Below are positions 5,789 to 64,000 of a DNA stretch of 64,000 nt, piece by piece. The DNA is from Deltaproteobacteria bacterium (GTDB lineage: Bacteria > Myxococcota_A > UBA9160 > UBA4427). Within the stretch, counting starts at the first letter, position 1. The number at the start of each line of letters is the position of its first letter. The stretch is from NCBI GenBank assembly GCA_002709835.1, contig PAQX01000019.1, forward strand, positions 46,197 to 110,196, written 5' to 3'. Both the position numbers and the translations under genes were made by a program. The notes beneath the pieces were generated by a model, which was not told the DNA's origin, searched no databases, and saw only the letters and a program-made list of their open reading frames with translations.

Positions 5789-5900
5789 TTCCGTTCCCTC
5801 TCCGCGTGACGCTTCCACTCTACGCGGTAGCCTCCCGTCGGCGCCAGCCGGCCGAACGAACGAGGGTCTCCCGCGACCGGAAACCGGAGGATGAAGAGGC

Positions 5901-13763: not shown

Positions 13764-14507
13764 ATGGCGAATAATATCTACCACGGGGTCGTTCGAACAC
13801 GCGACCAGATCACTCCCAACATGCTGCGCTTCTCGCTCGAGAGCGAAGCGTTAAGCGATTTCCCAGACGGCTTTGAAGGCGGCTACGTAAAACTCGTTTT
13901 CCCGCGACCCGAGGCGAAACGACCCGCCATGAGGTCCTATACCGTTCGCTCCTTCGATCGCGGTGCCCGACAAGTCACTCTTGAGATGGTCACGCATGGC
14001 GATCTCGGACCTGCGGGTCGTTGGGCCGAACGCGCGAAGCTCGGCGATTCCATCGTCTTCGCCGGGCCAGGGCCCTGCCGCTCCGCGGACCCGAGCGCTG
14101 ATTGGTTCCTGCTAGCGGGCGACATGACAGCTCTACCAGCGATCTCTGTTCAACTTGAGAACCTCCCGCCAAACGCCGTCGGCGATGCGGTGATCGAGGT
14201 CATCAGCGACGAAGACCGTCGAAAAATCATCCGACCCGACGGCATTGAGGTCCACTGGATCACGAATCCGGAGCCGGCGCGCCCGAACTCTTTGCTCGCC
14301 GATGCTGTGATGAATCTGCCCTGGCGATCCGGCAGAGTGTCTGCTTGGATCGCCAGCGAGTTCGCAAATGCACGCGCACTACGGCAGTACATGCGACACG
14401 ACCGGGCCGTCGACCGCGATTCGCTCTACGTGAGCTGCTACTGGAAGATTGGCGATACCGATGAGGGGATGAAGGCGGCGAAGGGCTCAGATTCGGAGTC
14501 CTGGTAG
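13764..14507 (+). CDS. siderophore-interacting protein (SIP/ViuB-type flavin reductase)
   Basis: The ATG at 13764 follows GGAGAG. It has the FAD-binding RxYT motif (MRSYTVRS), LLAGDMTALPAI, WIASEFANARALRQYM and YWKIG, which together give the FAD_binding_9 + SIP layout. The longer 292-aa ORF was rejected. Confidence 0.85.
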   Translation: MANNIYHGVVRTRDQITPNMLRFSLESEALSDFPDGFEGGYVKLVFPRPEAKRPAMRSYTVRSFDRGARQVTLEMVTHGDLGPAGRWAERAKLGDSIVFAGPGPCRSADPSADWFLLAGDMTALPAISVQLENLPPNAVGDAVIEVISDEDRRKIIRPDGIEVHWITNPEPARPNSLLADAVMNLPWRSGRVSAWIASEFANARALRQYMRHDRAVDRDSLYVSCYWKIGDTDEGMKAAKGSDSESW

Positions 14508-15935: not shown

Positions 15936-18900
15936 TCTTCGTTCCCGAATCGGACCTGGGCCAGGACCGCGGCGAGCTCCGAGGCTTCCAGGTCGTGACC
16001 GGGCACGGGCGCGTCTCCACCCTCGAGACACGCCGCCACCAACGCCTTGAGCGCCTGAACGGCTTCGTCCGCCACGCGCTCGATCAAATCGGGAGCGAGA
16101 TCCGTCGCGACGAATTCCCATTCCATCGTGACTTCCCCGCCGGAGATCCAAGCATTCAAGTCGAGGCGATGGGGGCGCTCGTTCCCCGCCGCAGCGCGCG
16201 GGCCCGGGACCGGCTCCCGAGAGAGCCCCTGGTCGTTCCCGCGCCCCGCGTCGAGTTGGCCGAGGTAGTTGAACCCGACCGCGGGTCGAACCGCGAGTGC
16301 CTCGCCGCCTTCCGAATAGCGAAGCAAGCCGTAGCCGAGGCCCTCCGCGGGCACCGCCTCGAGGGCGGACCGGACGTGGCGAACCCGCTCGATCGGCGCG
16401 GCGTCCTCGGGCCACTCGGGAGTGAACGGATGGAGCGCGGTGAACCAGCCGACCGTGCGCGACGCGTCGTACAGGATCTCGAGATCGCGGGCGTCTCGCC
16501 CGTGGGTCTCGACGGCGAGCGTCGGGGGCGGCGCGCCCGTCGTCTCGGCGAGGGCCGTCGCGGCGGACGTGAGCAGGAGCGTATGCGGATCGAATTCCGT
16601 CGCCCGCGGAATCTCGCGGGTCAGCCGCTCGGTCTCCGCGACCGGGAGGCGGCGCGTGATCGTCTCGACATCGCCATATCGCGTCGGCGCCGGCTCGGGC
16701 GCGCCCGGCATCGCCGTCCGCGCTTCCGCCACGACCGCGCGCCAGTAGTCGCGCTCGGCCTCGACAAGGGGGCGTGCCGCGACGAGGGCCTCGCTCCAGG
16801 CGCGAAAGCTGACCCCGCCCTGCAAGACGGGCAGATCCGGGAAGCGATAGGCGTGGCTCAGATCGTCGAGCAGGATCCGCCAGGACACCCCGTCGACGAT
16901 CAGGTGGTGGACCACGAATACGAGCAGCGGCCCTGCGCGTTCACCGCGGTCGAAGAGCGCGGCGCGGACGAGCGGTCCCGCCGAGAGATCGAGGCCCGCG
17001 TGCATCGCCGCGATCGCCGCGTGGAGCTCTGCATTGGATGCTCCACGGACGCGCTCGATCTCGAACGTCCCGAGCGACTCGGCATGGAACTGGCGCCAGC
17101 CCTCGTCGGTTCGCTCGAAGCGGAGACGAAGCGCCCCATGGGCCTCGAAGGTACGACGCGTCGCCTCGGCGAGGGCATCCACGTCGACTTTCCGGGGCAA
17201 ACCGATCGCGACGGCCTGGTTGAAATGCGCGGGACGTTCGGCCGGCCGCTCCAGGAACCACGACTGGATCGGCGTGAGCGGTACTTCGCCTTCCGCCGGC
17301 GGGGCCTCGGCGGGGACCGGGTTCGCGCGCCCGGCGACGAGCGCGAGCTCTTCGACCGTCTGGTACTGGAAGACGTCCGCTGGCGTGAGTCCCAGTCCGG
17401 CGCGGGCCGCAGCGCTCACGATCTGAAGCGCGATGATCGAGTCGCCGCCCGCCTCGAAGAAGTTGGTCTCGCGCCCGAGCGTCGGCTCGGGGAGGAAGGC
17501 GCGCCAGATCCCGAGCAGCGCGTCTTCGGTCGGGCTCTCTCCCTCGCTCGCGCCGGCCTCGACCGCGGACTCGGAGAAGGTCGGTCGGGGGAGCGCCTCG
17601 ATATCGACCTTGCCGTTCGGACCGAGGGGGAACGCGTCGACCCAGGTAAAGGAAGCGGGCATCATCTGCCGCGGCAGACGCGCGAGCAATTCGACCCGGA
17701 GCGAAGCCGAGGACGGACGAACGGTGTCCTCCGCCGGCAAGAGCCAGGCGACGAGCCGCCGCTCCGAGGCGGAGTCGCCCTCCGCACGGACCACCGCGTC
17801 GGCGATCGCCTGGTTCGAGACGAGGGCGCTCTCGATCTCGCCGGGTTCGATCCGGAAGCCCCGGACCTTCACCTGGTCGTCGATCCGACCGAGGAATTCG
17901 ACCACGCCATCCCTTCCGAACCGAACCCGGTCGCCCGTTCGATAGAGCGTGAGCGCGGCATCGTCGATCGCGTCGCGGCGCGGATCCAGGAAGGGGTTCG
18001 GGACGAAACGCTCGGCGGTCAGGGCCGGGCGCCGATGATAGGCGCGCGCCAACCCGTCTCCGCCGAGATAGAGCTCGCCGGGCACGCCCGGCGGAACCGG
18101 CTGCATCGACTCGTCGAGCACATAGACCTGCGTGAACCCGATCGGTCGACCGATCGGCGCGCTCGGCAGATCCGAACCCGGCGCGAGCTCGCTCGGCTCG
18201 AACCGATGGCAGCAGGTGAACGTCGTCCCCTCGGTCGGCCCGTAGCCGTTGATCAGTCGCGTGTTCGGCAGCGCCGCCTGCGCACGCCGAAGATGATCGA
18301 CCGAGAGCACGTCGCCCCCGGCGAGCAACTGCCGGACCGTCGCGAAGCGCTCGAGTCCATCGTCGACGACGAGGTGGAAGAGGCCAGCGGTCAGCCAGAG
18401 CGTCGTCACGCCGTGGTTCTCGACCAGCCCGCCGAGGGTCTCTAGCGCGAGCGGGCCCGACGTCTCCGCGTCCGGCAGGACGAGACAGCCGCCGTTCAGG
18501 AGCGGGCCCCAGATCTCGAGCGTCGACGCGTCGAAACCCATCGGCGCGGCGCCCAGGAAGACCTCGTCCGGACCGAAGTCGACGAAGCGATCCTGCTTCA
18601 CGAGACGCGTCACGCCGCGGTGGGGCACGGCGACGCCCTTCGGCGTTCCGGTCGAGCCCGAGGTGTACATGAGATAGGCGAGTCGATCGGGGCCCGAGGA
18701 GACCGCGAGCAAGGCATCCGCCGCCGCGTCGCCCGTGGACGGAACCGACGCGAGACAGAGCCACTCCGCCGCGAACGCTTCGGGGGCCGAGGCCCGGGTC
18801 GCGGACACGATCGTGCGAAGGTCCGCGTCCTCGATCGTCCACGCGATCCGAGCGGTCGGAAGACTCGTGTCCAGGGGAACGTAGACGCCGCCGATCTGGA

Positions 18901-28450: not shown

Positions 28451-29524
28451 TCAGGCCGCGTCGTTCGCGGTCGGCCCCGCGCCCGCGTCGACGCGCTTCT
28501 TCAGCCCGGCGAGATGCGGGAGGGATGCCATCACGACGTCGTAGTCCTGGACGAAATCGATCAGACAACAGACTTCGTCGATCCCGATCGACTCCATCTC
28601 CCGAACGAAGGGCAGGCAGCCCTCGGGCGTCCCGATCAGGGAGCGGTTGCGCATGAAGCCTTCGACCCCGAAATCGAGGACCGCCGAAAGGTCGTCGTCG
28701 CTGAAGTCGTCCAGGCTCACGTCGAGCCCCATTCCTTTCGCGAGGTTCTCGAGGAGCCCGTAGTGGGTCTTCAGGTACTCCCGGAAGGGCTCGCGAATGT
28801 CGCGTTTCACGGTCTCTTCGTCGTCGCCCAGGAAGGTGTGCATCATGAGCGAGACCGTGCCCGCCGCCGGGTCGTGCCCCGCCGCGCTCCTCGCCTCCCG
28901 GTACTTTCCGATCTGCTCGGCCACGTTGTCGAGGCTTTCGCCGAGGACCGAGGTCAGGATGTTCACGCCGAGCCGCCCCGCTTCGACGAAAGTCTCAGCG
29001 GACTGACAGGTGATCCAGATCGGAAGCTCCGGCTGAATCGGTCGCGGCAGCGTCTTCGCTTCGACCAGACGTCCGGCCGCGTCTTCGAACTCGACCGCTT
29101 CGCCGCGCCAGAGCCGCCGGACTTCGTCGAGACTCCGCCACATGAGTCCACGACGGCTGCCGTGGGGCTCCGAAGAAAGGATGAACTCGTCCATCGTCCA
29201 CCCGGTCGCCGCGGCCATCGCGACGCGCCCTCCGGACAGGTTGTCGACCACCGCCCAGTCCTCCGCGACGCGCACGGGATGGTGGAGCGGCAGCACGACG
29301 CTGCCGGCGCGCAACTGCACGTTCTCCGTAATCATCGCGAGGGAAGCCGCCGTAAGAGCCGGGTTCGGATAGAGTCCGCCGAACGCATGAAAATGACGCT
29401 CGGGCGTCCAGATCGCGACGAGGCCTTCGCGATCAGCGAAGCGCGCGGCGTCCTGAATGAGTCGGTAGTGATCGTCCCCGACCGCGGATCCGTCGCCGTC
29501 GAAGAAGAAGAGGCTGAACTGCAT
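28451..29524 (-). CDS. LLM-class (luciferase-like) flavin-dependent monooxygenase, free-standing
   Basis: 357 aa, MQFSLFFFDGDG...WTPERHFHAFGGLYPNP...GRVAMAAATGW. It resembles the luciferase-like monooxygenase domain that is often embedded in PKS/NRPS proteins. It is wedged between the last PKS and the first NRPS with gaps of 11 and 13 nt. Confidence 0.9.
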   Translation of the reverse strand: MQFSLFFFDGDGSAVGDDHYRLIQDAARFADREGLVAIWTPERHFHAFGGLYPNPALTAASLAMITENVQLRAGSVVLPLHHPVRVAEDWAVVDNLSGGRVAMAAATGWTMDEFILSSEPHGSRRGLMWRSLDEVRRLWRGEAVEFEDAAGRLVEAKTLPRPIQPELPIWITCQSAETFVEAGRLGVNILTSVLGESLDNVAEQIGKYREARSAAGHDPAAGTVSLMMHTFLGDDEETVKRDIREPFREYLKTHYGLLENLAKGMGLDVSLDDFSDDDLSAVLDFGVEGFMRNRSLIGTPEGCLPFVREMESIGIDEVCCLIDFVQDYDVVMASLPHLAGLKKRVDAGAGPTANDAA

Positions 29525-51873: not shown

Positions 51874-54800
51874 ATGAGCCAATCCGAAGACATCGACCGC
51901 CTGCTCGCTCAACTCTTCCGTCTCGGCGTCCGCCTCGAGGCCAAGGGCGACAGCCTGAGGGCTTTTGGGCCCAAAAGTGCGCTGGACGGAAAACTCCGCC
52001 AGGAGATCCAGGATCGGAAGGCCGAGATCCTCGCGACCCTGGCCGCGCGAAAGCATAGTGCGGGTTCGGCCGCGTCGGCTTCGATCGGCACCAGTGACCG
52101 ACCGACTAACCCTCCTCTCTCCTTCGCCCAGCAACGACTCTGGTTTCTCGAGCAGCTCCAACCCGGGACTTCGGCGTACAACCTTCCCCTTGGTTTCACG
52201 ATCCAGGGCCAGCTCGAGCCGAAAGCCCTGATCGCCACGCTCGACGAACTCATCGCTCGCCACGAGATCCTGCGGACTCGCTACGTCCTCGACGAGGGCG
52301 AAGCCATTCAAGTCATCGATGAGGAAGTCCAACTCACCGTCCCCGTCCTCGATCTCCGGGACCAGGTCGACCGCGAACGCGCCGTCATCGCTGAGATCCG
52401 CTCCGCCGCGGCGCGCCCCTTCGATCTCGCGGCCGAACATCCGGTACGCGCCGCGATCCACCGAGTCGGCGACGCCCATTGGGTTGTGCTCTTCACCCTC
52501 CATCACATAGCCGCCGACGGCTGGTCCCTTGAGATCCTGCTGCGAGAGATCTCGACGATCTATCCTGCGAAACTCCTCGGGACGGAAGCCTCGCTGCCTG
52601 ATCTACCTGTCCAATACGCGGACTTCGCGGTTTGGCAGCGATCCGACGCGCACGCGCAGACACTCGACCAACAGCTCCGCTACTGGCGCAAACAGCTCGA
52701 CGGTCACATCCCCCGACTCCAACTTCCGACCGACCACACGCGTCCGCGCAGCCAGAACTTCAACGGGGACTTCGTAGAGTTCGAGATCGACCGCCACGTA
52801 GCCGACCGACTCCGGCAGATTGGAAAGACGCGCGGCGCAACGCTGTACATGACGTTGCTCGCCGCACTGAACGTCCAACTCCTCCGGTATACCGGCCAGC
52901 GCGACATCCTGGTCGGGTCTCCGATCGCGAATCGCCAACATGCCGAGGTCGAATCCCTCGTCGGGCTCTTCGTGAATACGCTGGTCATCCGTTCGCGCCT
53001 CGACCCCAAGGATCGTTTCGAAACCCTGGTCGACCAGGTCCGGGAGACGACCCTCGCGGCCTACGACCACCAGGACCTTCCTTTCGAGCTGCTCGTCGAG
53101 GCCCTCGCGCCCGATCGCGACCCTGGCATACACCCACTCTTCCAGGTGAAGTTCCGCCTTGAGAACGCGCCTGCCCAACGCCTCGAGATGCCAGGCCTGA
53201 CCCTCGAGCGCCTTCGCCAGGAAACCGTGTCCGCCAAGCTCGACCTGAGCGTCGACGTCTATGAGACGGATGGAGGCCTGGCCGGCGCCTTCGAATACGA
53301 TCGCGACCTCTTCGATCGCACAACGATCGAACGTATGAGCGCACAGTATGCAGCGCTCCTCGAAGTCATCGCGAGCCAACCAACAGCGGCGATCGGCTCG
53401 CTGTCCGCGCTGACCGAAGCAGAGATCACCCGACAGCAGCGCGAGTGGAACGACTCAACGAAGTCCTATCGCGACGACGCCTGCTACCACCACCTCTTCG
53501 AAGACCAGGCCGCCGCCCATCCCGACACGCTCGCGGTCCGATTCGACGACGGCTGCACGCATACGGATCTCACCTACGACGCGTTGAACGCACGCGCGAA
53601 TCGGCTCGCGCGCCGATTGATCGACGAAGGCGTCGGCCCCGAGTGCGTGGTCGCGATCTGCCTGGACCGATCGCCGGAGATGGTCGTCGCCATGCTGGGC
53701 GTCCTGAAGGCCGGAGGCGCCTACCTTCCCCTCGATGCGGAGTACCCCGCCGAGCGGCTCGAGTACATGATCGAGGACGCCGCCGTCCAGCTACTGGTCG
53801 GCGGCGGTCAAGCGCCAAAACTCTCAGGCGCGAAGATGATCGACCTCGATCGTTTCGACTGGAGCGGCGATGACCCGGGCAATCCGGATGTCGCGTTGTC
53901 CCCCGACAATCTGGCCTACCTGATTTACACGTCGGGTTCGACCGGACGACCGAAGGGGGTCACGATCGCCCACCGTGGCCTCGTGAACCTGACCGAAGAC
54001 AAGATCAGGAAGTGCGACGTCCGCCACGGCGACTGCGTTCTCCAGTTCTTCTCGTTCAGCTTCGACGGGTCCGTCCCGGAGTTCGTGATGACCCTCGCGA
54101 CCGGCGCGCACTTACTGATGGCGCCGGCGGAAACGATGCTGCCCGGGCCGGAACTCGCGGACCTCCTCCGACGCAATGACGTCACGCACATCACGCTCAC
54201 CCCGTCGGCACTCACCGCGCTCCCGTCTGGGGACTACCCCGCGCTCCGGATGGCACTCGTCGGCGGCGAAGCACCTTCTCCCGAGCTGATCCGGGAGTGG
54301 AGTCAGGGTCGGAACTTCATCAACGCCTATGGGCCGACCGAGACCACGGTCAACGCGAGCATGGTCTATTGCGGGAACGAGCACCCCGTCGAACCGACAA
54401 TCCTGCCTAGCGCGAACAAGCAGCTTTACGTCCTCGACCCCGATCTCCAGATCACACCGGTCGGCGTCGTCGGCGAGCTGCACATCGGCGGGGTCGGTCT
54501 CGCGCGCGGCTACCACAACCAACCTGCGCTGACCGCAGAACGCTTCATCCCGAACCCATTCGCGACCGGCGAGACGGGCGAGCATGGCATCGGCGCACCG
54601 CCGCTCCTGTACAAGAGCGGCGACCTCGCCGCCTATCTCCATGACGGTCGGATCAAGATCCTGGGACGCGTCGACCACCAGACCAAGCTGCGCGGCTTTC
54701 GGATCGAACTCGGCGAGATCGAGCGCAATCTCGAGGCCCATCCGGCCGTCCGCGCCGGCGTCGTGGCGATCCGGGAGTTCGGCGACGATCGGCGTTTGGT

Positions 54801-55284
54801 CGCCTATGCCGTACCAAAGGACGCCCCGGTCGACCCGGCCGAAATCCGACAGTTCCTCGCATCGAAGCTGCCCCACTTCATGCTCCCGACGACGTGCGTA
54901 TGGATCCCGGAGCTGCCGCGAACGAGCAATGACAAGCTCGACAGCGACGCGCTCCCCATGCCGAACTTCACGAAGGCCGAGCGCCGAGAGCCGCGGACGG
55001 AGACCGAGGCTCTCCTCGTCGAGACTTTCGCATCCGTCCTCGCGCTCGATCGTGTCGGAATCGACGACGATTTCTTCGACCTCGGCGGGCACTCGCTCCT
55101 CGTCACCCGGCTCGTAGCGCTCCTCAAGAATCGATTCGACGTCGAGGTCACGGTCATGGATCTCTTCGACGCGCCGAGCGCCTCGTCCCTTGCGCAGCGG
55201 ATCGAACAAAAGCAGGTGATCGGTCGGCTCGTCGAATCCGACGTCGAAGGCGCAGACGACGACCGAGAGGAGATGGCGCTGTGA
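51874..55284 (+). CDS. NRPS, one module with an N-terminal docking domain: DD-C(LCL)-A-T (1136 aa)
   Basis: Residues 4-58 form a TubC_N-type docking domain (DIDRLLAQLFRLGVRLEAKGDSLRAFGPKSALDGKLRQEIQDRKAEILATL). C domain: LSFAQQRLWFLEQL, HHIAADGWS. A domain: LAYLIYTSGSTGRPKGV, YKSGDL, hand-read code DGPTLGAVNK. T domain: FFDLGGHSLLVTRL. No E/TE. Acidic C-terminal tail ...VESDVEGADDDREEMAL. Confidence 0.95.
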   Translation: MSQSEDIDRLLAQLFRLGVRLEAKGDSLRAFGPKSALDGKLRQEIQDRKAEILATLAARKHSAGSAASASIGTSDRPTNPPLSFAQQRLWFLEQLQPGTSAYNLPLGFTIQGQLEPKALIATLDELIARHEILRTRYVLDEGEAIQVIDEEVQLTVPVLDLRDQVDRERAVIAEIRSAAARPFDLAAEHPVRAAIHRVGDAHWVVLFTLHHIAADGWSLEILLREISTIYPAKLLGTEASLPDLPVQYADFAVWQRSDAHAQTLDQQLRYWRKQLDGHIPRLQLPTDHTRPRSQNFNGDFVEFEIDRHVADRLRQIGKTRGATLYMTLLAALNVQLLRYTGQRDILVGSPIANRQHAEVESLVGLFVNTLVIRSRLDPKDRFETLVDQVRETTLAAYDHQDLPFELLVEALAPDRDPGIHPLFQVKFRLENAPAQRLEMPGLTLERLRQETVSAKLDLSVDVYETDGGLAGAFEYDRDLFDRTTIERMSAQYAALLEVIASQPTAAIGSLSALTEAEITRQQREWNDSTKSYRDDACYHHLFEDQAAAHPDTLAVRFDDGCTHTDLTYDALNARANRLARRLIDEGVGPECVVAICLDRSPEMVVAMLGVLKAGGAYLPLDAEYPAERLEYMIEDAAVQLLVGGGQAPKLSGAKMIDLDRFDWSGDDPGNPDVALSPDNLAYLIYTSGSTGRPKGVTIAHRGLVNLTEDKIRKCDVRHGDCVLQFFSFSFDGSVPEFVMTLATGAHLLMAPAETMLPGPELADLLRRNDVTHITLTPSALTALPSGDYPALRMALVGGEAPSPELIREWSQGRNFINAYGPTETTVNASMVYCGNEHPVEPTILPSANKQLYVLDPDLQITPVGVVGELHIGGVGLARGYHNQPALTAERFIPNPFATGETGEHGIGAPPLLYKSGDLAAYLHDGRIKILGRVDHQTKLRGFRIELGEIERNLEAHPAVRAGVVAIREFGDDRRLVAYAVPKDAPVDPAEIRQFLASKLPHFMLPTTCVWIPELPRTSNDKLDSDALPMPNFTKAERREPRTETEALLVETFASVLALDRVGIDDDFFDLGGHSLLVTRLVALLKNRFDVEVTVMDLFDAPSASSLAQRIEQKQVIGRLVESDVEGADDDREEMAL
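51883..52047 (+). other. TubC_N-type (beta-hairpin) docking domain, copy 1 (N-terminus of the NRPS)
   Basis: Pattern L..L...GV.L...G..L....PK.AL...L...L...KAEIL..L, as in the N-terminal docking domains of myxobacterial-type NRPS subunits. Assigned from memory of the family consensus. Confidence 0.7.
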
Positions 55285-58200
55285 ATGTGCGCTCCTCCGG
55301 ACGTTTGAACCCGACGACGACCTTCGAGCCGCTGTGGAATCAGTGGTACGCGTGGAGCTATCTGATCCCGCCCGCCTCCGCGTCGCGGTATCTGACCGAA
55401 TCCCATCTCGCGACGCTGCAGTCCTTCGCGGATGCGCCCGAAATACACGTCGAGGCGCTCCGCGATCCGGCGATGCGCGGCGGTCCCTTCATCGAATACG
55501 GCGTCGATCGCGCGGACGAGATCCGGGCGTTGTTCACCCGCACGACCGCGAAAACCACAGCCTTGGCGAACCTGAGTCTCGCAATCCGTAATCTCGAGGC
55601 GAAGCTGTCGGCCTATCCGCGCGGCATGTCCCTCGAACCGCTCTACGACGAGATCCCCGAACCCCTTCGCGGCTTCGTCGAACTCGTCTATGACGCCCGG
55701 GACAGCGCTGCCATCCGCTTCATCGAGCCGATGCTCTACCGGAGCGAGTTCTACGACCCCTCGCTCCAGACGATCGCGCTGCAGCGAATGGACGATCCCG
55801 ACACCCGCGGCTTCGTGCTGAGCACGCCGCGCCTCGAGGCCGACCTCGACTGCCATCTGCCGATCCCCTTCGACGACGCGCGCATCGATGCCCTCGCGCG
55901 TACCCGTCGCGAAGCGCGGGTGATCGGCGAACTCGCCGAAGAACTCGGGATCGGCGCCGCTGAACTTGATCGTTTCGCAGCACTCTTCACCGAGACGAAG
56001 GCGCCCGAAGCCGGCGTCCGTGCCGAAGGCGTCCGCGTCCGATACCTGGGTCATGCTTGCGTTCTCCTCGAGACCCGAGACGTCACGATCCTCGTCGACC
56101 CGCTGATTCCCTACGCAAGCGCAACCGGAATCGATCGAATCTCGTACGACGATCTGCCGGAGCGGCTAGATTACGTTCTGATCACTCACAACCATCAGGA
56201 CCACGTGATGCTGGAGACCCTTCTCCAGCTGCGCCACCGGATCGGCACGGTCGTCGTCCCGCGTTCCCAGAAGGGCTCGATCCTCGACCCGTCGATGCGT
56301 CTATGCCTGAAGCGGATCGGCTTCCGGAGCGTTCGGGAGATAGACGAGCTGGACGCAATCGACCTCCCCGATGGTGAGATCGTTTCGCTTCCCGTACTCG
56401 GGGAACACGGAGACCTGAACATCGGGGCGAAGAGCGCCTACTGGATCCGCGTCCTAGGACGATCGATCGTGTGCGCCGCCGACTCGAACAGCATCGACGA
56501 CCGACTCTACGCCCACTTCCGCCAGCTACTCGGCCGACCGGATCTCCTCTTCATCGGCATGGAGTGCGACGGCGCCCCCTTTACCTGGTCCTATGGGCCG
56601 ATCCTGCCCACGCCGGTGCCCCAGCGGATCGCGAAGTCCCGCCGCCTCGACGGCTCGGACGCCGAGCGCGCTCTGCGGATCGTCGACGCGCTCGATCCGA
56701 GCGCCGTCTACGTTTACGCGATGGGCGGCGAACCGTGGCTGACCTTCATCACATCGATCGCTTATACCGAAACGTCGCGCCCGATCGTCGCGTCGAACCG
56801 ATTCGTCGAAGCCTGCCACGAGCGCGGCCTCGACAGCGCGCGCCTCCTCGGGCGACGGGACTTCCACTTGACGCCCGGCAACGGGACCACCGCCCCCTCC
56901 GCGGCCCCGCTCCCGGCTCGGCTCGACCCGAACCTCGAGGCGTCGCCGCAGCCGGTCGCCGCGTCTAAGCGCCCCTCGGAAACCGCCAGTGCAGTCTCGG
57001 CCCGTCGCGATGGCAAAGGTCAGAAGCTAACGGCGCTCCTCGCGGAGCTCGAGTCTCTGGACGTCCGCTTACACGTCGACGGCGAGCAGCTGAAGGTGAA
57101 CTCGCCGAAGGGCGCGCTGACCGACACGCTCAAAGCCGCGCTGAAGGAGCACAAGGCGGCGATCGTGGCGCTCATCTCGGGCGGCCGCGATAGCGAGGCG
57201 AAGGCCGGACCGGAAGATGAGCGCCCCGCGCACGAGGGTGCCGAAGACGTTCGTCTTGCCGCGGACCTCGTCGTCGCGAGTTCGCGCACCCCGCGCCACG
57301 ACACCACGCCGAGCGAGATCCTCCTGACGGGCGCCACGGGTTTCCTCGGCGCCTATCTCATGGACGCGCTGCTCGAACGGACCGACGCCCGCATCACCTG
57401 CCTCGTCCGATCGGACTCCACCGAAGCCGGACTCGAGCGGATCGCGGAGGCCTTCTCGCTCTACGCCCTGGACTCCGGGCGCCTTGAAGCGCGGATCGAC
57501 GTGCTCCCGAGCGACCTCACGAAGCCCCGCCTTGGGCTCGACGAAGCGACCTTCGATCGACTCGCGTGCGAAATCGACGTGATCCATCACGCCGGCGCCA
57601 TGGTGCACCACGCTTCACCCTACTCGCAGCTCCGCGACGCGAACGTCGACGGCACCCGTCGGATCCTCGAACTCGCGGCGGCGGGCGGCGGCCTCCCGGT
57701 CCACTACGTCTCGACCCTGAGCGTCCTCCCGCCCCGTCCATTCCCCGGGAAGACCCGCTTCCACGAGCACGATCCGATCGACGCGTTTCCGGTACCGGCC
57801 GGCGGCTACAACCTGAGCAAGTGGGTCGCGGAGCATCTCGTCGTCGACGCCCGCCGCGCAGGGATTCCGGTCTCGGTCTACCGGCCCGGTCCGGTTTCCG
57901 GCGACCAGCGCACGGGCGCCTTCAATCGCGACGACTTCCTCTACCGCTTGATGTCGGGATACCTGCAGTCGGGCCTCGCGCCGGACGGCGAGACCTCCCT
58001 CGACATGCTGCCTGTCGACTTCGTTGCCGAGACGATCGTCGCGCTGGCGGACGATCCGGATTCCCTTGGACAGACCTTCCACCTTCTCCACCCGAATCCC
58101 GCCTCCTCGGAGATCCTCTTCGAGGTCTGCCGTGAAGCGGGTCATCCGATCAAACGCGTGCCCTATCAGCGCTGGTTCGAACACCTGACCGAAATCGCGA

Positions 58201-58451
58201 AGCACGACGAGAACCATCCGCTCTATCCGCTCGTAGGGCTCTTCTCGTCGCGCTCCGGACGAAGCGATTCGGCCCCAGCGCCGGAAGGGCCGCCTGAGCT
58301 GCCATTCGAGACGGCGAACCTGCACGCGGGCCTTCTCCGCGTCGGTCTCGAGATCCCGCCCCTCGATCACGCGCTCTTCCATACCTACGTGGGCGCGATG
58401 CTCCCCGCCGAGGGCGAAGACGTGCGGCGCGCGATCGGAGGCGAGCGATGA
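55281..58451 (+). CDS. three-part fusion: CmlA-type non-heme diiron beta-hydroxylase (MBL fold), internal docking domain, thioester reductase (R) domain (1056 aa)
   Basis: One uninterrupted ORF. The GTG start overlaps the upstream stop (GTGA). The MBL core has THNHQDH (nt 56184-56204; H303, H305, D307, H308), LGEHGD (E375) and CAADSN (D401). Then a Pro/Ala/Ser linker and a docking domain at aa 581-634. The R domain runs from aa 680: LLTGATGFLGAYL, RITCLVR, HHAGAMV, YNLSK. No T, C or A domain. Confidence 0.85.
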   Translation: MNVRSSGRLNPTTTFEPLWNQWYAWSYLIPPASASRYLTESHLATLQSFADAPEIHVEALRDPAMRGGPFIEYGVDRADEIRALFTRTTAKTTALANLSLAIRNLEAKLSAYPRGMSLEPLYDEIPEPLRGFVELVYDARDSAAIRFIEPMLYRSEFYDPSLQTIALQRMDDPDTRGFVLSTPRLEADLDCHLPIPFDDARIDALARTRREARVIGELAEELGIGAAELDRFAALFTETKAPEAGVRAEGVRVRYLGHACVLLETRDVTILVDPLIPYASATGIDRISYDDLPERLDYVLITHNHQDHVMLETLLQLRHRIGTVVVPRSQKGSILDPSMRLCLKRIGFRSVREIDELDAIDLPDGEIVSLPVLGEHGDLNIGAKSAYWIRVLGRSIVCAADSNSIDDRLYAHFRQLLGRPDLLFIGMECDGAPFTWSYGPILPTPVPQRIAKSRRLDGSDAERALRIVDALDPSAVYVYAMGGEPWLTFITSIAYTETSRPIVASNRFVEACHERGLDSARLLGRRDFHLTPGNGTTAPSAAPLPARLDPNLEASPQPVAASKRPSETASAVSARRDGKGQKLTALLAELESLDVRLHVDGEQLKVNSPKGALTDTLKAALKEHKAAIVALISGGRDSEAKAGPEDERPAHEGAEDVRLAADLVVASSRTPRHDTTPSEILLTGATGFLGAYLMDALLERTDARITCLVRSDSTEAGLERIAEAFSLYALDSGRLEARIDVLPSDLTKPRLGLDEATFDRLACEIDVIHHAGAMVHHASPYSQLRDANVDGTRRILELAAAGGGLPVHYVSTLSVLPPRPFPGKTRFHEHDPIDAFPVPAGGYNLSKWVAEHLVVDARRAGIPVSVYRPGPVSGDQRTGAFNRDDFLYRLMSGYLQSGLAPDGETSLDMLPVDFVAETIVALADDPDSLGQTFHLLHPNPASSEILFEVCREAGHPIKRVPYQRWFEHLTEIAKHDENHPLYPLVGLFSSRSGRSDSAPAPEGPPELPFETANLHAGLLRVGLEIPPLDHALFHTYVGAMLPAEGEDVRRAIGGER
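57021..57183 (+). other. TubC_N-type docking domain, copy 2 (internal to the fusion protein)
   Basis: QKLTALLAELESLDVRLHVDGEQLKVNSPKGALTDTLKAALKEHKAAIVALISG. Hand alignment with copy 1 gives 19 identical positions over 51 ungapped residues, including VRL, PK.AL and KA.I. Confidence 0.7.
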
Positions 58452-59302
58452 GCGCGCGCTATGACCGATACGACGGTTGGGCCTCGCTCTACAACGCCAC
58501 GATGGGGCCCGAGTACGGGCACGCGCAGTTCGAGATCGTCGAGAGACTGATCCTTCCGTCGATTCCCGCGCGCGCGACGATCCTCGACCTCTGCTGTGGG
58601 ACCGGCCAGCTTCTTACCCCACTCGCGGAAGCAGGCTACGCGGTCACCGGTCTCGACGGCTCGACCGAGATGCTCCGCTTCGCCGCGGAGAACGCCCCCG
58701 ACGCGAAGCTCGTCGCGGAAGACGCTCGGGAGTTCCGTAATCCCGAAGCGTTCGACGCAGTGGTGTCGACGAGCGCCTCGCTCAATCACGTGGGCTCTCT
58801 CGATGATCTCCAGTGCGTGTTCGGAAACGTCTTCGCCTCCCTCCGTCCGGGCGGCGGCTTCCTCTTCGACCTGAATCACCCCGCCCAGCTCGAACGCTGG
58901 TGGAACGGTCGCCCCACCGAAGGCGAGATCGACCGACACCTGGCCTGGATGATCACCCCCGAGTACGACGCCGCCCGGAGTGAGGGCCGCTTCACGGTCA
59001 CCGTCTACAGCGCACCCGAAGCCTCAATCCGCCCCTGGAAGACCCCGCTCTACCGACTCCTATCGCTTCCACGCTTCATCGGGCTCCGCCTGTGCGCAAT
59101 CGGCCGCTTCGATCGACTCGAACCTGAATGGGCGCGAGATTCCATGGCTTTCCCCGTTTTCGGCCACTCCATCGACGGCGTCCGCGAACGACTGGAGCGT
59201 GTCGGGTTCGATGATATTTGCGTCGAGACCGCCGACGGCATGCCTCTCGACGAAAACCACTCCGCGCATTTCGTCTGTCGGAAGCCTTCGGAGGACGCGT
59301 AG
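58448..59302 (+). CDS. class I SAM-dependent methyltransferase (284 aa)
   Basis: Motif I ILDLCCGTGQL, post-I VTGLDGS, motif II FDAVVS, and LRPGGGFLF. Joined to the upstream gene by an ATGA overlap. Confidence 0.85.
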   Translation: MSARYDRYDGWASLYNATMGPEYGHAQFEIVERLILPSIPARATILDLCCGTGQLLTPLAEAGYAVTGLDGSTEMLRFAAENAPDAKLVAEDAREFRNPEAFDAVVSTSASLNHVGSLDDLQCVFGNVFASLRPGGGFLFDLNHPAQLERWWNGRPTEGEIDRHLAWMITPEYDAARSEGRFTVTVYSAPEASIRPWKTPLYRLLSLPRFIGLRLCAIGRFDRLEPEWARDSMAFPVFGHSIDGVRERLERVGFDDICVETADGMPLDENHSAHFVCRKPSEDA

Positions 59303-60774
59303 TGAGCAAGGCGACGAAGCAGAACCGCGAACCGGGCGCGGCACAGCTCCGCGCGCAGCTGATCTCCGAGCTCGGCGCGCGCACGAGCAAGTCGAAGGCC
59401 TACGCCGAAGAGCACCGACTGCACCACGCGGACAAGAGCTCGATCGGCGCGGACTTCGACCCGCGCCTCAAGGAGATCTTCTACCCGATTGTGACGACAC
59501 GGGCCGAGGGTGCCCACTTGTGGGACCTCGATGGCAATCGCTACGTCGACATACTCCAGGGGCTCGGGGCAAACCTCTTCGGACACAACCCTGACTTCGT
59601 CCGCGAGGCGATCGCCAGCCAGCTCGAGGACGGTTTCCCAGTGGGACCCCAGACACCGCTCGCCGGCGAAGTCGCCCGCCAGGCGGCTCGCCTAACCGGA
59701 GCCGATCGCGTCTGCTTCAGCGTGACCGGGACAGAAGCCGTGATGACAGCGATCCGTCTCGCGCGAACCTCGACCGGCCGCAACAAGATCGTAGTGTTCA
59801 CCGACTCCTATCATGGCCATTCCGACGCCGTGCTTAATCGAGCTTCGATCGTCGAGTACGCACGCCGCAAGGTTCAGGGTGCTCTCGCCAGCCGCGGGGC
59901 GCCCGGAGCGATCGTCGAAGCGCTTCGCCGCCCCCTGCGGACCCGCGGCGTCCCCGCGGTGCCGGGCATCCCCGGTTCCGTCGCTCGTGACGCCCTCGTA
60001 CTCGAATACGACAACCCGCGTTCCCTCGACGTGATTCGACGCAACCGGAAAAAAATCGCGGCGGTGATAGTCGAACCCGTTCAGAGCCGCTGCCCCGAAC
60101 GCCAGCCCGTCGAGTTCCTCAGGGATCTGCGAGCGGTCACCCGAGAACACGACATCGCCCTCGTCTTCGACGAAATGGTGACCGGATTTCGAACCCACCC
60201 CGCCGGTGCACACGGCCTCTTCGAGATCGAGCCCGATATCGCAACCTACAGCAAGGTCGCGGGAGGAGGGCTTCCGCTTTCCCTGATCGCGGGTTCCGCG
60301 CGCTACCTCGACGCCATCGACGGCGGCGCCTGGCGCTTCGGCGACGAGTCTGCGCCGGAGGTCCAAACCACCTTCTTCGCCGGCACCTTCGCGAAGCATC
60401 CACTCTCCCTGCGCGCCGCTCACGCGGTTTTCTCGCGCTTGCTCGATGAAGGACCGGCCTTCCAGGCAGGTCTGACCGAAAAGACGGCGGCACTGGTAGA
60501 GCGGATCAACCACACGACCAAGGCTGAGGGTCTGCCGGTCCGGTTCACGCACTTCGGATCCTTCTTCGCGATCGCGCTGAGCGAAAGCCGCATGGATCCG
60601 CACGCCGTGGTGCTTCTCTCTTATTGGCTTCTTCGCGAGGGAATCTTCCTTCGCCCCGGAGACAAAGGCGGCTTTCTGACCACTGCACATGACGAGCAGG
60701 ACACCCACGCGATCGCGACGGCCTTCGAAGGTGGGATTCGAGCCTTGCGAGACGCACACGTATTGCCGGCTTGA
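59302..60774 (+). CDS. class-III PLP-dependent aminotransferase (glutamate-1-semialdehyde aminomutase-like)
   Basis: A GTG start at 59302 (TAGTG junction with the methyltransferase stop) gives 490 aa. Motifs: HLWDLDGNRYVD, GFPVGPQTPLAGEVA, SVTGTEAVMTAIRLAR, VIVEPVQ, LVFDEMVTGFR, and the PLP lysine in ATYSKVAGGGLP. The upstream part of the listed 518-aa ORF overlaps the methyltransferase. Confidence 0.9.
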   Translation: MSKATKQNREPGAAQLRAQLISELGARTSKSKAYAEEHRLHHADKSSIGADFDPRLKEIFYPIVTTRAEGAHLWDLDGNRYVDILQGLGANLFGHNPDFVREAIASQLEDGFPVGPQTPLAGEVARQAARLTGADRVCFSVTGTEAVMTAIRLARTSTGRNKIVVFTDSYHGHSDAVLNRASIVEYARRKVQGALASRGAPGAIVEALRRPLRTRGVPAVPGIPGSVARDALVLEYDNPRSLDVIRRNRKKIAAVIVEPVQSRCPERQPVEFLRDLRAVTREHDIALVFDEMVTGFRTHPAGAHGLFEIEPDIATYSKVAGGGLPLSLIAGSARYLDAIDGGAWRFGDESAPEVQTTFFAGTFAKHPLSLRAAHAVFSRLLDEGPAFQAGLTEKTAALVERINHTTKAEGLPVRFTHFGSFFAIALSESRMDPHAVVLLSYWLLREGIFLRPGDKGGFLTTAHDEQDTHAIATAFEGGIRALRDAHVLPA

Positions 60775-60831: not shown

Positions 60832-61056
60832 ATGAGTGAAACGAATACGACGGACAGCGCGATCTTTTCGGTCGTCGTCAGCGAAGAAGGTCGTTACTCC
60901 ATCTGGCCAGAATACAAGGAGATCCCCTGGGGTTGGCGGGCAGATGGCAAGCGCGGATCGAAGGCTGAATGCCTCGACTACATCGAAACCGTGTGGACGG
61001 ATATGCGCCCCTTGAGCCTTCGCCGTGCGATGGACAAAGACACCTCGAGCAACTAG
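60832..61056 (+). CDS. MbtH-like protein (74 aa)
   Basis: Signature [13 protein letters not shown] ... [14 protein letters not shown] (three conserved Trp and the PxGW motif). Confidence 0.9.
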
Positions 61057-61077: not shown

Positions 61078-61563
61078 ATGGAACCCATGCCCGAAGAGCG
61101 CGATAAGACGACCGAGGAACCGCAGGTTCTCGATCTAGTCGCACCGTGGAATCTTCCGCTCGCGCTCGACCTCGGCGATCGTGAGCGCGAGACGATCGCG
61201 GCTACGCTCACGGAGCTCAACGCGGAGCTCGCGTCCGAGCAGCCTCGCTCGCAAGCCCTCGAGAAGCTGATCGAGCGCTTCCCAACGCCAACTGTCCAGA
61301 GGCACTCGATCACGGACACCAAGTCGAACCTCACGTCCGAAGACGTCGAGTCGTACGACCGCTACTTCGAGGTTCGGCACGTCGATACAGAATCGCCCGC
61401 GCGCTCGATCGTGCGCAGTCTGCTCATGACCTGCCATTCTTTCCTTTCACTGCGTGAGACCGGCTTCTCGTTCGATTCCGAACAAGTCGCCCTGCAGACG
61501 ACGGGTTTCCGCGAGCATGCGCGTCTGATCGCGCGGATCTGCGGAATCGCACTGGAGCGCTGA
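61078..61563 (+). CDS. hypothetical protein (161 aa), acidic N-terminal half
   Basis: The ORF has ordinary composition and sits in operon context. Its stop overlaps the next start (TGATG). No family recognised. Confidence 0.5.
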   Translation: MEPMPEERDKTTEEPQVLDLVAPWNLPLALDLGDRERETIAATLTELNAELASEQPRSQALEKLIERFPTPTVQRHSITDTKSNLTSEDVESYDRYFEVRHVDTESPARSIVRSLLMTCHSFLSLRETGFSFDSEQVALQTTGFREHARLIARICGIALER

Positions 61564-62192
61564 TGTCGACTTTCGCTCCGAACATGTCGACACCGTCGGC
61601 AATTGAGCTCTGGAAGCGTTTCCACTGGGCGTTCTTCGTGAACACCCAGGGGCTCCTCATGGCGCTCTCTCGATTCGAGCGTTTCGTGGAAACGGAAGAC
61701 TTCGAGGGTGCTCGGCGAGAGATGGCCGCTGCCGCGACGCTCATGCGGGCCTCGGGCGCGTCGATGCAGTTGGCAGGCAGCTTCACCCGGCAGGAATACA
61801 AGGACCAAGTCCGACCATCGATGATGCCCCCGGAGCTGGAGGTCGCGGGATTCAGCGGCCTCATGTCCTGGGATCACGCGAGCTTGATCGAACTCTGGCG
61901 ACGACTCAGCCCGATCTTCGCTTCGCTGCCTGACGTACTCAAGCACGAGTATGAGGACTTCGTAGCCGCCTACGGCACGCTTGCTGACTCGCATAGTGCA
62001 GTCTGCTCACGCTTCGTCGCGAAGGGCGAGGGCTCGATCCGCTACGAGGGCGATGAAGCCATCGAGTCCTTGTCCCGATTCCGCAAGGGACGGGAGGCGA
62101 TGATCGCTCCGCAGGGACGCGTGAGTGGCTGCCCCGCCCACGGCGCACCGGCGACGCACCGCGACGAAGCGGACGACGACATCGAGAGCTGA
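61563..62192 (+). CDS. hypothetical helical protein (209 aa), possible distant tryptophan-2,3-dioxygenase-superfamily (heme) fold
   Basis: Translationally coupled ORF. By-eye resemblance to TDO landmarks: ELWKRF (the ELW helix), YKDQVRP...AGFSGLMSWDHASLIE (compare F.xFR..L.P.SGFQS.QfR.lE), and SHSAVCSRFVAKGEGS (compare the proximal-His region H...V.R.iG.K.GTGGSS). The functional call has low confidence. Confidence 0.5.
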   Translation: MSTFAPNMSTPSAIELWKRFHWAFFVNTQGLLMALSRFERFVETEDFEGARREMAAAATLMRASGASMQLAGSFTRQEYKDQVRPSMMPPELEVAGFSGLMSWDHASLIELWRRLSPIFASLPDVLKHEYEDFVAAYGTLADSHSAVCSRFVAKGEGSIRYEGDEAIESLSRFRKGREAMIAPQGRVSGCPAHGAPATHRDEADDDIES

Positions 62193-62194
62193 AG

Positions 62195-64000
62195 ATGTCG
62201 CGCGAAGCCATCCCTCACGACCGTATCGAAGATGTCTATCCGCTGACCCCGACTCAGCAAGGCATGCTCTTCCACGACCTGATGCATCCGAACTCCGGTG
62301 TCTACGTCGTGCAGGTTTCATTCACGGTTTACGGCGCGATAAACGAAGCGGCCTTCGCCGAGACCTGGCGTGCGCTCCAGAAACGGCATCCCGTCCTCCG
62401 GACCGCCTTCGCGTGGGAAGGACTAGCCCGCCCGATGCAGGTCGTTGGACGCGAGGCGCCGGTCGGGATCACGGACGTCGATGCGCGAGGAACGAGCGAG
62501 CGCGAACGGAACTCGTTGCTCGAGGGCTGGCTGGCCGAGGACCTCTCGCAGGGCTTCGACCCGAGCCGCGCGCCGCTCATGCGCGTCGCACGGATCCGGT
62601 TGGACGAGAGAACGACCCGTATCGTCTGGACCTATCATCATCTCCTCCTCGACGGCTGGTCTCTTCCTCTCCTGCTCGGCGAGTGGATCGCCTGTTACCA
62701 GGCCGCGGCCCGAAACGAGTCACCGCCCCTGGGTGAAGCGCCGCGCTACCGGGAGTTCGTCGACTGGCTGGAGGCGCAGGACCAGGCGGCAAGCCGTGCC
62801 TACTGGACGGAAGCTCTCGAAGGTTGCACCCCTACCCACGTGAGCGGCGGCCATCGCGACCCGAAGGAGACGCGTCAGGCGCGAACGATCCGAACCCTCA
62901 AACCCGAGACGACCGCGCGGCTCCGGGCCTTTGCCCGAGCCGAACGCGTCACCCAGAGCACCGTCCTTCAGGCCGCCTACGGTCTCGTACTGGGACGCCA
63001 CTGCGAGCAGGACGACGTTCTATTCGGCCTCGCCCGATCGGGCCGTCCCCACGCCCTCGATCGGATCGACGAACGCATCGGTCTCTTCCTCAATCTGCTG
63101 CCGACACGAGTGGAACGGCACGAGGTGGCGACGATCGGGGACTGGCTGCGCGCGCTCCAGGCACGCTTCGTCGAGCAGCAACGCTTCGAATACTCCTCGC
63201 TCCGCGACGTCCACGTCGCGAGCGGGGTCGCGGCGGATCAGCAGCTCTTTTCGTCGATTCTCGTCTTCGAGAACTACCCGACCCTTGAGGGGGGAAGCGA
63301 GGATGTCCCGAGCGACGGCCTCAGGATCTGCGACGTCGACGTCCGCGAGCACACGAACTACCCGCTCAATCTCTACATCTCGGGCACCGACGCCCTTGAG
63401 CTTCGACTGCTCTATGGACTCGGCCACTTCACTTCCTCGGAAGCAGACCGCCTCGTCGGCCAGATCGCTTCGACGTTAGACGCGATCATCCAGGACGGCT
63501 CGCGCCAAGTCGGCTCGCTGACTGCCGCCTCCCTCGCGGAGATCCACGAGGCGCACGTCGCCCCAAACTCGACACGTAGGGACTCTCAGCCCGAGTCCGT
63601 TCTCGAGTCGTTTCGGAAGCAGGTCACCAGCGGGCCGACACATCCCGCGCTCGTCTGCGGGGATACGCGACTCGACTACACCACGCTCGCGCGAGAAGTA
63701 GCCGCTATCGCTGAACGCTTGCGCGCCACGGGGATCGGCGAAGGCCGCCTCGTCGGAATCTGTCTTCCGCGAACGGCCCGCCTCCCGATCGCTCTCCTCG
63801 CGGTACTTTCAACCGGCGCCGCTTACGTTCCGCTCGACCCGTCGTTCCCCGAACAGCGCCTGCGCCAGATCGTAGAAGACTCCGGGATCGCCTCGGTGCT
63901 CGTCGACGACGCAACTGAAGCGCTCGCACGATCTCTCGGCGCGGCGCCGGTCCGCGTGGACGCGGACAACGAAGCGCCCTGCTTCGAGCTCGGCGAGGCT
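62195..64000 (+). CDS. NRPS, partial: C(DCL-type)-A... (3' end lies outside the window)
   Basis: Not in the ORF track because it has no stop. Frame 2 is open from the ATG at 62195 to the window edge (602 codons, checked by hand at both ends). MSREAIPHDRIEDVYPLTPTQQGMLFH, YHHLLLDGWS, then the start of an A domain (LVCGDTRLDYTTLAREV...LLAVLSTGAAYVPLDPSFPEQRL). Confidence 0.9.
   Translation, partial: MSREAIPHDRIEDVYPLTPTQQGMLFHDLMHPNSGVYVVQVSFTVYGAINEAAFAETWRALQKRHPVLRTAFAWEGLARPMQVVGREAPVGITDVDARGTSERERNSLLEGWLAEDLSQGFDPSRAPLMRVARIRLDERTTRIVWTYHHLLLDGWSLPLLLGEWIACYQAAARNESPPLGEAPRYREFVDWLEAQDQAASRAYWTEALEGCTPTHVSGGHRDPKETRQARTIRTLKPETTARLRAFARAERVTQSTVLQAAYGLVLGRHCEQDDVLFGLARSGRPHALDRIDERIGLFLNLLPTRVERHEVATIGDWLRALQARFVEQQRFEYSSLRDVHVASGVAADQQLFSSILVFENYPTLEGGSEDVPSDGLRICDVDVREHTNYPLNLYISGTDALELRLLYGLGHFTSSEADRLVGQIASTLDAIIQDGSRQVGSLTAASLAEIHEAHVAPNSTRRDSQPESVLESFRKQVTSGPTHPALVCGDTRLDYTTLAREVAAIAERLRATGIGEGRLVGICLPRTARLPIALLAVLSTGAAYVPLDPSFPEQRLRQIVEDSGIASVLVDDATEALARSLGAAPVRVDADNEAPCFELGEA

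Follow-up and report, generated by a model that had tools for sequence, protein, structure and literature searches.

Pairs of a beta-hairpin docking (bHD) domain and a C-terminal short linear motif (SLiM) are known from the assembly lines of nonribosomal peptide synthetases (NRPSs) and polyketide synthases (PKSs); more than 1400 of them were found by Kosol et al. in 2019, as recounted in PMC9113145, which also places bHDs on trans-acting condensation (C) domains, halogenases and thioester reductases and states that one SLiM can recruit more than one partner. As a case study, we considered a stretch of 64,000 nucleotides from Deltaproteobacteria bacterium (contig PAQX01000019.1 of assembly GCA_002709835.1, positions 46,197 to 110,196), hereafter the window, in which two adjacent genes each encode a bHD, one at the N-terminus of an NRPS module with C, adenylation (A) and thiolation (T) domains (the C-A-T protein) and the other in the middle of the next protein, between a CmlA-like oxygenase and a thioester reductase (R). 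We consider it likely that the two bHDs mediate separate docking contacts, orthogonal to each other, within a single siderophore assembly line, and that the internal one tethers the oxygenase-reductase fusion to the C-terminal tail of the C-A-T protein.

Comparison with described systems

The mechanism proposed would, by analogy, be that of known SLiM-bHD docking, its closest functional parallels being Bamb_5915, the AerJ halogenase and the bHD-thioester reductases. In the release of enacyloxin (6cgo), the bHD of the trans-acting enzyme Bamb_5915 (bHD-C) captures the C-terminal motif of the carrier Bamb_5917 (PCP-SLiM), likewise as proposed here, but the bHD of Bamb_5915 is N-terminal and serves one C domain, whereas in the window it lies between an oxygenase and a reductase and is bounded by two flexible linkers. 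The bHD of the AerJ halogenase (8aqq) and the catalogued bHD-thioester reductases are cases of tailoring or release enzymes recruited through a bHD, as would be the case here. The N-terminal bHDs of TubC, EpoB and Kj12 (2jug, 5t7z and 6EWV) resemble the copy of the C-A-T protein in position, fold and presumed subunit-linking role; unlike in those systems, the cognate tail was found neither on the window nor on L081, a scaffold that extends it, and cyanobacterial relatives have a tail of the type G-R-K-E-I-E-L.

The oxygenase itself is related to CmlA (chloramphenicol) and FrsH (FR900359), diiron beta-hydroxylases that share fold and metal ligands with the N-terminal 546 residues of the fusion. 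CmlA works with the A-T-R protein CmlP, and the fusion oxygenase would likewise stand beside a reductive release domain on one carrier; by contrast, CmlA and FrsH are stand-alone enzymes and have no docking domain, whereas the oxygenase of the window shares its polypeptide with a bHD and a reductase. By gene content, the window matches the Dmaq chelator genes of anachelin (A. cylindrica PCC 7122) and fabrubactin (A. fabrum C58), which comprise a last NRPS module and a reductase together with a methyltransferase, an aminotransferase and a function for oxidising tyrosine. The locus differs from all these systems in having a bHD inside a fusion that would serve two enzymes, in the occurrence among its relatives of C-terminal bHDs on CmlA-type enzymes, and in a rule of charges that separates two classes of docking pair. 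In the literature searched, which lies outside the primary papers of 2019 and 2021, we found neither a bHD placed C-terminally to a CmlA-type oxygenase or shared within a fusion nor a two-class charge rule parting a tailoring dock from an elongation dock, though an earlier mention of either is possible; the docking logic of the Dmaq cassette is undiscussed there as well.

Identity and fold of the two bHD domains

The C-A-T protein (51874..55284, plus strand, as are all genes described below unless stated) has 1136 residues and, according to its Pfam domain matches, the order bHD-C-A-T, with a C domain of the LCL type; it is 100% identical to a protein of an NCBI metagenome-assembled genome labelled Deltaproteobacteria bacterium. 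The sequence-only reading that preceded this work had called two paralogous TubC_N-type docking domains, one terminal at 51883-52047 and one internal at 57021-57183, with 19 shared positions. We re-read both segments, whose translations were correct, and compared them with the bHD profile TubC_N (PF18563) of Pfam, the gathering score of which is 26 bits. The N-terminal copy (aa 7-56 of the C-A-T protein; 51892..52041) scores 42.4 bits in the whole protein and 49.5 bits as an excised segment, and the internal copy (aa 585-631 of the next protein by profile match) 55.7 and 62.4 bits, so that both calls are confirmed. The best ungapped offset between the two segments indeed gives 19 identities, and BLASTP aligns them with 19/48 identities and no gaps (E 3e-10). 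A six-frame scan with the family hidden Markov model (HMM) showed no third copy in the 64-kb window.

The word paralogous holds at the level of the family only, as class-specific HMMs place each copy in a conserved lineage of its own. The N-terminal copy scores best with the HMM of the N-terminal class (58.9 bits, vs 47.9 bits with that of the internal class) and the internal copy with the HMM of the internal class (82.6 vs 58.3 bits), and the 35% identity between the two copies of the window is below the mean of 42% between the two classes. These scores and identities rule out a recent duplication of the bHD.

Both copies are predicted to adopt the beta-hairpin fold. Neither of the outcomes named beforehand as refuting the sequence-only reading, a failed profile search or the lack of such a fold, was thus obtained for either copy. 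In the AlphaFold2 model of the internal bHD (aa 578-634; 57012..57182), helices at 578-592, 615-623 and 625-632 enclose strands at 596-600 and 603-607, with a predicted local distance difference test (pLDDT) score of 84-93; the model of the whole protein was built from 103 sequences and has a mean pLDDT of 88. In sequence, this copy matches the solved bHDs of EpoB (5t7z), AerJ (8aqq), TubC (2jug) and Bamb_5915 (6cgo). The N-terminal copy has the same succession of elements (helix 3-16, strands 20-24 and 27-31, helices 39-47 and 49-65) at a pLDDT of about 62-83, in a model of lower confidence obtained from 15 sequences only (mean pLDDT 65). The second strand (beta2) and the following loop read ...SLRAFGPKSALD in the N-terminal copy and ...EQLKVNSPKGALT in the internal copy, in which K610 stands directly after the invariant P609. 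A bHD usually occupies the N-terminus of a subunit, just before the catalytic domain it serves. Copy 1, which precedes the C domain, conforms to this; copy 2 does not, as it starts at aa 578 behind an oxygenase of 546 residues, though directly before the R domain.

The oxygenase-bHD-reductase fusion

The gene following that of the C-A-T protein (55281..58451) encodes a fusion of 1056 residues, assigned from Pfam, NCBIfam and its sequence as CmlA-like oxygenase, bHD and thioester reductase. The two genes are translationally coupled, the GTG start codon of the second sharing bases with the TGA stop codon of the first (GTGA).

The N-terminal part (aa 8-546; 55302..56918) is a diiron oxygenase like CmlA and FrsH, made of a CmlA_N domain (Pfam match with E 3e-73) and a metallo-beta-lactamase fold. 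Its top Foldseek matches are FrsH (8a90; template modelling (TM) score 0.96, 41% identity) and CmlA (4jo0; 38% identity), with TM scores ranging from 0.92 to 0.96, and the ligand motif H303-x-H305-x-D307-H308 together with E375, D401 and E428 is invariant in 103 sequences. The C-terminal part (aa 680-1038; 57318..58394) is a thioester reductase (R/TD) that scores 326.9 bits with TIGR01746 (cut-off 213) and matches the terminal R domain of myxalamid (4w4t, 38% identity) in Foldseek; the nucleotide-binding motif TGATGFLG is present and the catalytic pair of Tyr and Lys (Y843 and K847) is invariant. The bHD is separated from both catalytic domains by disordered linkers with pLDDT below 50, the first of about 31 residues (aa 547-577; 56919..57011) and the second of about 16 (aa 635-650; 57183..57230), and across the family these flanking segments vary freely in length and sequence.

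Tail classes and the charge rule

The sequence-only reading had proposed that two related receivers imply two donor tails, and that one donor could be the acidic tail of the C-A-T protein itself. The quoted C-terminus, ...VESDVEGADDDREEMAL before the stop, is correct. Behind the T domain (aa 1047-1110) it contains the candidate SLiM DDDREEMAL (aa 1128-1136; 55255..55281), recognised from its motif, conservation and disorder; the tail is disordered from aa 1122 to 1136 (AlphaFold2, pLDDT below 50), and among the ends of all open reading frames (ORFs) of the window only this one has the core [RK]-x-[ED]-phi-x-phi. In the published complex of Kj12B/C the last five or so residues of the SLiM pair with beta2, where two salt bridges together with a hydrophobic face hold them (PMC9113145). 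The C-A-T tail, with its core R(-6)-x-E(-4)-phi(-3)-x-phi(-1), fits this complex.

For comparison we detected 518 related loci and fetched 80 of them, mostly from cyanobacteria (cited below by number, L001 onwards). In every readable fetched locus the T-ending protein just before the fusion ends in an acidic run followed by R-E-E-[IFM]-[AE]-[LIF], for example DDDREEMAL in the window, and DEEREEIAL, EGEREEMEF or DGEREEIEL elsewhere, with the exceptions of L026, which lacks the acidic run, and of the last module of L022, which has L at -6. In cyanobacteria, the protein encoded before the bHD-C-A-T gene has a tail of a second class, G-[RH]-K-E-I-[ES]-L. The two classes of bHD are distinguished by what follows the invariant Pro behind beta2, internal copies having P-K-G and N-terminal copies P-E/D-E/D.

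We then compared the charge at tail position -5 with that of the bHD residue after this Pro in 90 adjacent tail-to-bHD pairs. The tail is acidic and the bHD basic in 58 pairs, the tail basic and the bHD acidic in 29, and one side is neutral in the remaining 3; no pair has like charges. In L022 and L029 the N-terminal bHD has switched to the K type and the tail preceding it has switched to the REE type as well, and these two loci would be independent confirmations of the rule, the only ones beyond shared ancestry. Conservation of its motif in related loci and co-variation of its charge with that of the bHD make it very probable that the internal bHD has the acidic C-A-T tail as its ligand, which strongly supports the first donor named by the sequence-only reading. 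The idea that two receivers imply two donors is upheld too.

A competing explanation, which we regard as improbable, is that both bHDs of the window compete for or share the single REE tail, with the N-terminal bHD of one C-A-T molecule docking on the tail of another, giving self-docking, iteration as in rhabdopeptide synthesis, or control over when the tailoring enzyme gains access. In the window, the N-terminal bHD carries Lys34 after Pro33 (GPKS), as is typical of internal copies, including its own (SPKG), so that the charge rule gives it a preference for tails that are acidic at -5; the C-A-T end is the sole such tail within the window, and promiscuous and iterative use of SLiM-bHD pairs is documented (PMC9113145). 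Against this, the closest orthologue (L001, with a C-A-T protein 79% identical) has GPTE, so that the Lys is not kept even within the clade, and all other N-terminal copies are acidic and paired with the different class of tail. Furthermore, the C domain is of an ordinary LCL type, which leads one to expect an upstream donor, and the rest of the assembly line, from NRPS5 onward, lies beyond the window and may hold the cognate tail.

Distribution and architecture in related loci

The pair [bHD-C-A-T][CmlA-bHD-R] was found in most of the fetched loci, with a few partner modules devoid of the N-terminal bHD. All of the at least 120 fusion homologues listed (44-76% identity) bear CmlA_N, a metallo-beta-lactamase domain (MBL), TubC_N and NAD_binding_4; they are chiefly cyanobacterial, with some from Burkholderiales, Pseudomonadales and Myxococcota. 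The internal bHD is well kept in the alignments, with the consensus ...LDIRLW.DG..LRCNAPKG.LT....

Other loci have the same domains in different arrangements. Four of them are split and encode a CmlA-bHD protein, with the bHD at its C-terminus, beside a separate bHD-R gene (L061, 8302-11581; L063, 8599-13662; L064, 6220-9628; L066, 9983-13349). Two fusions contain a tandem bHD-bHD (L052, 742-3714; L059, 9938-13636), and three loci encode a CmlA-bHD protein without R domain (L054, 9977-11896; L057; L060), that of L054 following a C-A-T protein that ends in DDDREEIAL. More distant CmlA homologues (L071-L079) have no bHD. The split, tandem and R-less variants argue that oxygenase and reductase each make use of a bHD independently, and the fusion with a single bHD looks like a condensed form of this series.

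These variants bear directly on the idea that the internal bHD serves the reductase alone, having been the ordinary N-terminal dock of an independent R protein before its fusion to the end of a CmlA gene, while the oxygenase finds the carrier by itself like CmlA or FrsH. This would agree with the stand-alone bHD-R genes of the four split loci, with the many CmlA homologues that have no bHD, and with the N-terminal bHDs of thioester reductases catalogued by Kosol et al. (2019, as cited in PMC9113145). We nevertheless consider it unlikely, since CmlA proteins with a C-terminal bHD and no R domain exist, one of them next to an REE tail (L054), since the oxygenase of the split loci retains its own bHD beside bHD-R, and since the fusions of L052 and L059 retain both copies in tandem.

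No NRPS was seen in the fetched flanks of the split loci, which encode RTX/T1SS-like proteins, a phycobilisome-linker-like membrane protein and a DUF4347/DUF5648 protein. In L061, the methyltransferase, aminotransferase and peroxidase genes are found 6-10 kb downstream, and an NRPS may therefore sit just beyond. L022 (2849-13060) has one more module, specific for Gly (pocket code DILQLGLIWK) and with a K-type bHD, between the DAPTLGAVNK module and the gene of the fusion. As the two T domains of this locus both have tails of REE/LEE type, the fusion could use one carrier when oxidising and the other when releasing the chain.

Proposed docking mechanism

Taken together, we propose that the disordered C-A-T tail presents its last six residues, R-E-E-M-A-L, as a SLiM that would add a strand to beta2 of the central bHD, with R(-6) and E(-4) in salt bridges, M(-3) and L(-1) packed against the helices and E(-5) opposite K610. 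Docking would tether both catalytic domains to one carrier protein, and the two disordered linkers would give the oxygenase, then the reductase, reach to the thioester. The oxygenase would act first, on the T-bound residue; the reductase would next release the chain as an aldehyde, to be transaminated and methylated by the neighbouring aminotransferase and methyltransferase. The N-terminal bHD would join the C-A-T protein to an upstream carrier domain of the assembly line. About as likely as not, the single central bHD is a swivel hub that lets oxygenase and reductase alternate on one carrier, with a charge code that keeps the tailoring dock orthogonal to the elongation dock.

Several points weigh against this proposal. 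The opposite charges, found in 87 of the 90 adjacent pairs, mostly reflect two old lineages and are not 90 independent events, so that only the two independent class switches of L022 and L029 back the rule, and L026 carries Q instead of K/R after the Pro. The cassette contains a CmlA-type beta-hydroxylase although its presumed product, Dmaq, bears no beta-hydroxyl group; the oxygenase could perform a cryptic hydroxylation or an oxidation of the ring, or the product could be a different one. Finally, FR-901375 provides a system with a dispensable SLiM, in which the bHD holds on to the carrier domain itself (PMC13324335), and the C-A-T tail may therefore matter less than its conservation implies.

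This last case provides an alternative of its own, in which the internal bHD would dock on the carrier domain directly, with the SLiM of lesser weight. It draws on the dispensability of the SLiM in vivo in that system, where the bHD touches the first and last helices of the carrier (PMC13324335). We give it little credence here: SLiM contacts in FR-901375-type systems are poorly conserved and mainly hydrophobic, whereas R1131, E1132 and E1133 of the C-A-T tail (positions -6, -5 and -4) are invariant in our alignment (A3) and nearly so across phyla, and the charge at position -5 changes together with that of the bHD.

The upstream donor of the N-terminal bHD

As second donor, the sequence-only reading had suggested the NRPS whose gene runs off the window (NRPS3; 62195..64000, beginning with a DCL-type C domain followed by an A domain). 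We could follow this gene on L081, a TARA Oceans scaffold returned by an exact look-up of the 209-aa peroxidase gene described below, which overlaps positions 61495-64000 of the window at 99.9% identity. There, NRPS3 is complete with 1094 residues and the domains C-A-T (L081, 701-3985), and ends in ...DEARRAAGATRRSTLRDRRRRAAGGPTG (in a shorter quote, ...RRSTLRDRRRRAAGGPTG). A KS-AT-KR-ACP PKS gene (PKS4), whose start overlaps the stop of the NRPS3 gene, comes next and is followed by another NRPS gene (NRPS5) of at least 2112 codons. The basic tail AG..R-[QNS]-R-L-x-x-R-R-R is common to six homologues of NRPS3 (L001, 13754-18160; L009, 16154-20032; L010; L011; L026; L048), and the gene after each of them begins with a KS domain that has almost no N-terminal extension. 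The basic tail and the KS may form an NRPS-to-PKS docking element, which we matched to no known docking class. NRPS3 as the second donor is therefore contradicted and very improbable: its gene shares strand and operon direction with that of the C-A-T protein and the window stops before its C-terminus, but the end read on L081 lacks the R-x-E-phi-x-phi core, leads by the overlapping stop into a PKS (the basic tails of 6/6 homologues being followed by a KS), and is followed by two further megasynthase genes, so that the tail, judged from its sequence, belongs to an NRPS-to-PKS junction and not to a bHD.

Returning to two distinct donors, we searched for the one that would serve the N-terminal bHD and found no cognate tail in the window or on L081. 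NRPS2 was rejected as a candidate, as its last domain is of the E type (HHLIVDGVSWRIL), with a COM-like helix, and the C domain of the C-A-T protein carries the motif PLSFAQQRLWFL, which we take to be of the LCL type. A search for homologues of the N-terminal 601 residues of NRPS3 returned only relatives of at most 41% identity, and a metagenome scan with NRPS5 only relatives of at most 52%, the tails of which (..EELTAQLNALLQEDQEEE and ..DEVEAQLRKLLSDQSS) are helix-like and show no clear SLiM. Because NRPS2 has an E-type end, NRPS3 a DCL and the C-A-T protein an LCL domain, the assembly order is likely to be NRPS1 > NRPS2 > NRPS3 > PKS4 > NRPS5 ... > bHD-C-A-T > R, and on this order the donor of the N-terminal bHD would lie further downstream in the cluster.

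Cluster setting and likely product

The fusion gene is followed by genes for a methyltransferase dependent on S-adenosylmethionine (SAM; 58448..59302, Pfam), a class III aminotransferase (59218..60774, Pfam and NCBIfam; the true start is probably downstream of 59218), an MbtH-like protein (60832..61056, PF03621) and two adjacent SfmD_perox proteins of 161 and 209 residues (61078-61563 and 61563-62192). The last assignment (PF27188) comes from a precomputed Pfam table, and the pair had no match in the Pfam copy searched nor in NCBIfam. Methyltransferase and aminotransferase genes follow the fusion gene in 51 of the 80 fetched loci, and the peroxidase pair is present too in 49. In the proposed anachelin cluster, genes 11-15 are annotated Red, MT, AmT and TyrH (PMC4247773), and in fabrubactin biosynthesis DOPA is made from Tyr by FbnL/FbnM, a haem peroxidase of two proteins (PMC12971057); the annotation of the pair in the window suggests an enzyme of the same kind. 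All gene types of the Dmaq cassette are present and syntenic in 49-51 loci, the comparison with the Fbn and anachelin genes being one of gene content alone. Since this gene set matches the published genes for Dmaq chelators, we infer that the window contains a fabrubactin/anachelin-like siderophore cluster.

By likeness to the Dmaq genes of anachelin and fabrubactin, the C-A-T protein probably activates DOPA or Tyr, and it would load the last building block. Its adenylation pocket code is DGPTLGAVNK; among related loci the partner module has DAPTLGAVNK in 54 cases and DGPTLGAVNK in 3 (the window included), together 57 of 62. The code D[AG]PTLGAVNK is practically invariant across phyla, and matches no specificity code known to us.

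The minus strand of the cluster encodes a FAAL-ACP, two KS-AT-DH-cMT-ER-KR-ACP PKSs, a KS-AT-KR-ACP PKS and two NRPSs. Also on the minus strand are genes for a siderophore-interacting protein of the ferric-siderophore reductase family (13629-14504), a MATE exporter (14544-16415) and a luciferase-like monooxygenase of the MupA/Atu3671 family (28451-29524), which together support a fabrubactin-like siderophore product. Atu3671 itself sits in the siderophore cluster of A. fabrum. A cluster of the cyanochelin type was considered and rejected: cyanochelins are reported with stand-alone or NRPS-fused aspartate beta-hydroxylases ('DOX'), CmlA being unmentioned, and with ethanolamine as the terminal residue of the chain, beside a TD (thioester reductase) domain. 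Around 12-16 kb the G+C content falls to 0.59-0.63, at the edge of the cluster, and the left part of the window encodes an amidohydrolase (2497-4203, minus strand), an alpha/beta hydrolase (4916-6187, minus strand), a short-chain dehydrogenase/reductase (SDR; 9265-10170, minus strand) and a protein of the serine beta-lactamase family (10317-11606, plus strand).

Significance

Most of what is encoded here is ordinary, in that the domains match their Pfam labels and act as such domains are known to. A probable docking logic can now be assigned to the Dmaq cassette, found widely among the siderophore clusters of cyanobacteria and in those of some proteobacteria. Few tools for dividing and reconnecting NRPS and PKS assembly lines are as portable as SLiM-bHD pairs, and the charge rule (REE with P-K-G, RKE with P-E-E), if true, would provide ready-made orthogonal pairs from a single pathway. 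If the hub is real, the series of split, tandem and single-bHD forms would record its origin and show that a bHD is able to work from the C-terminal side of an enzyme, and the family would offer a natural case of one docking domain for two trans-acting enzymes.

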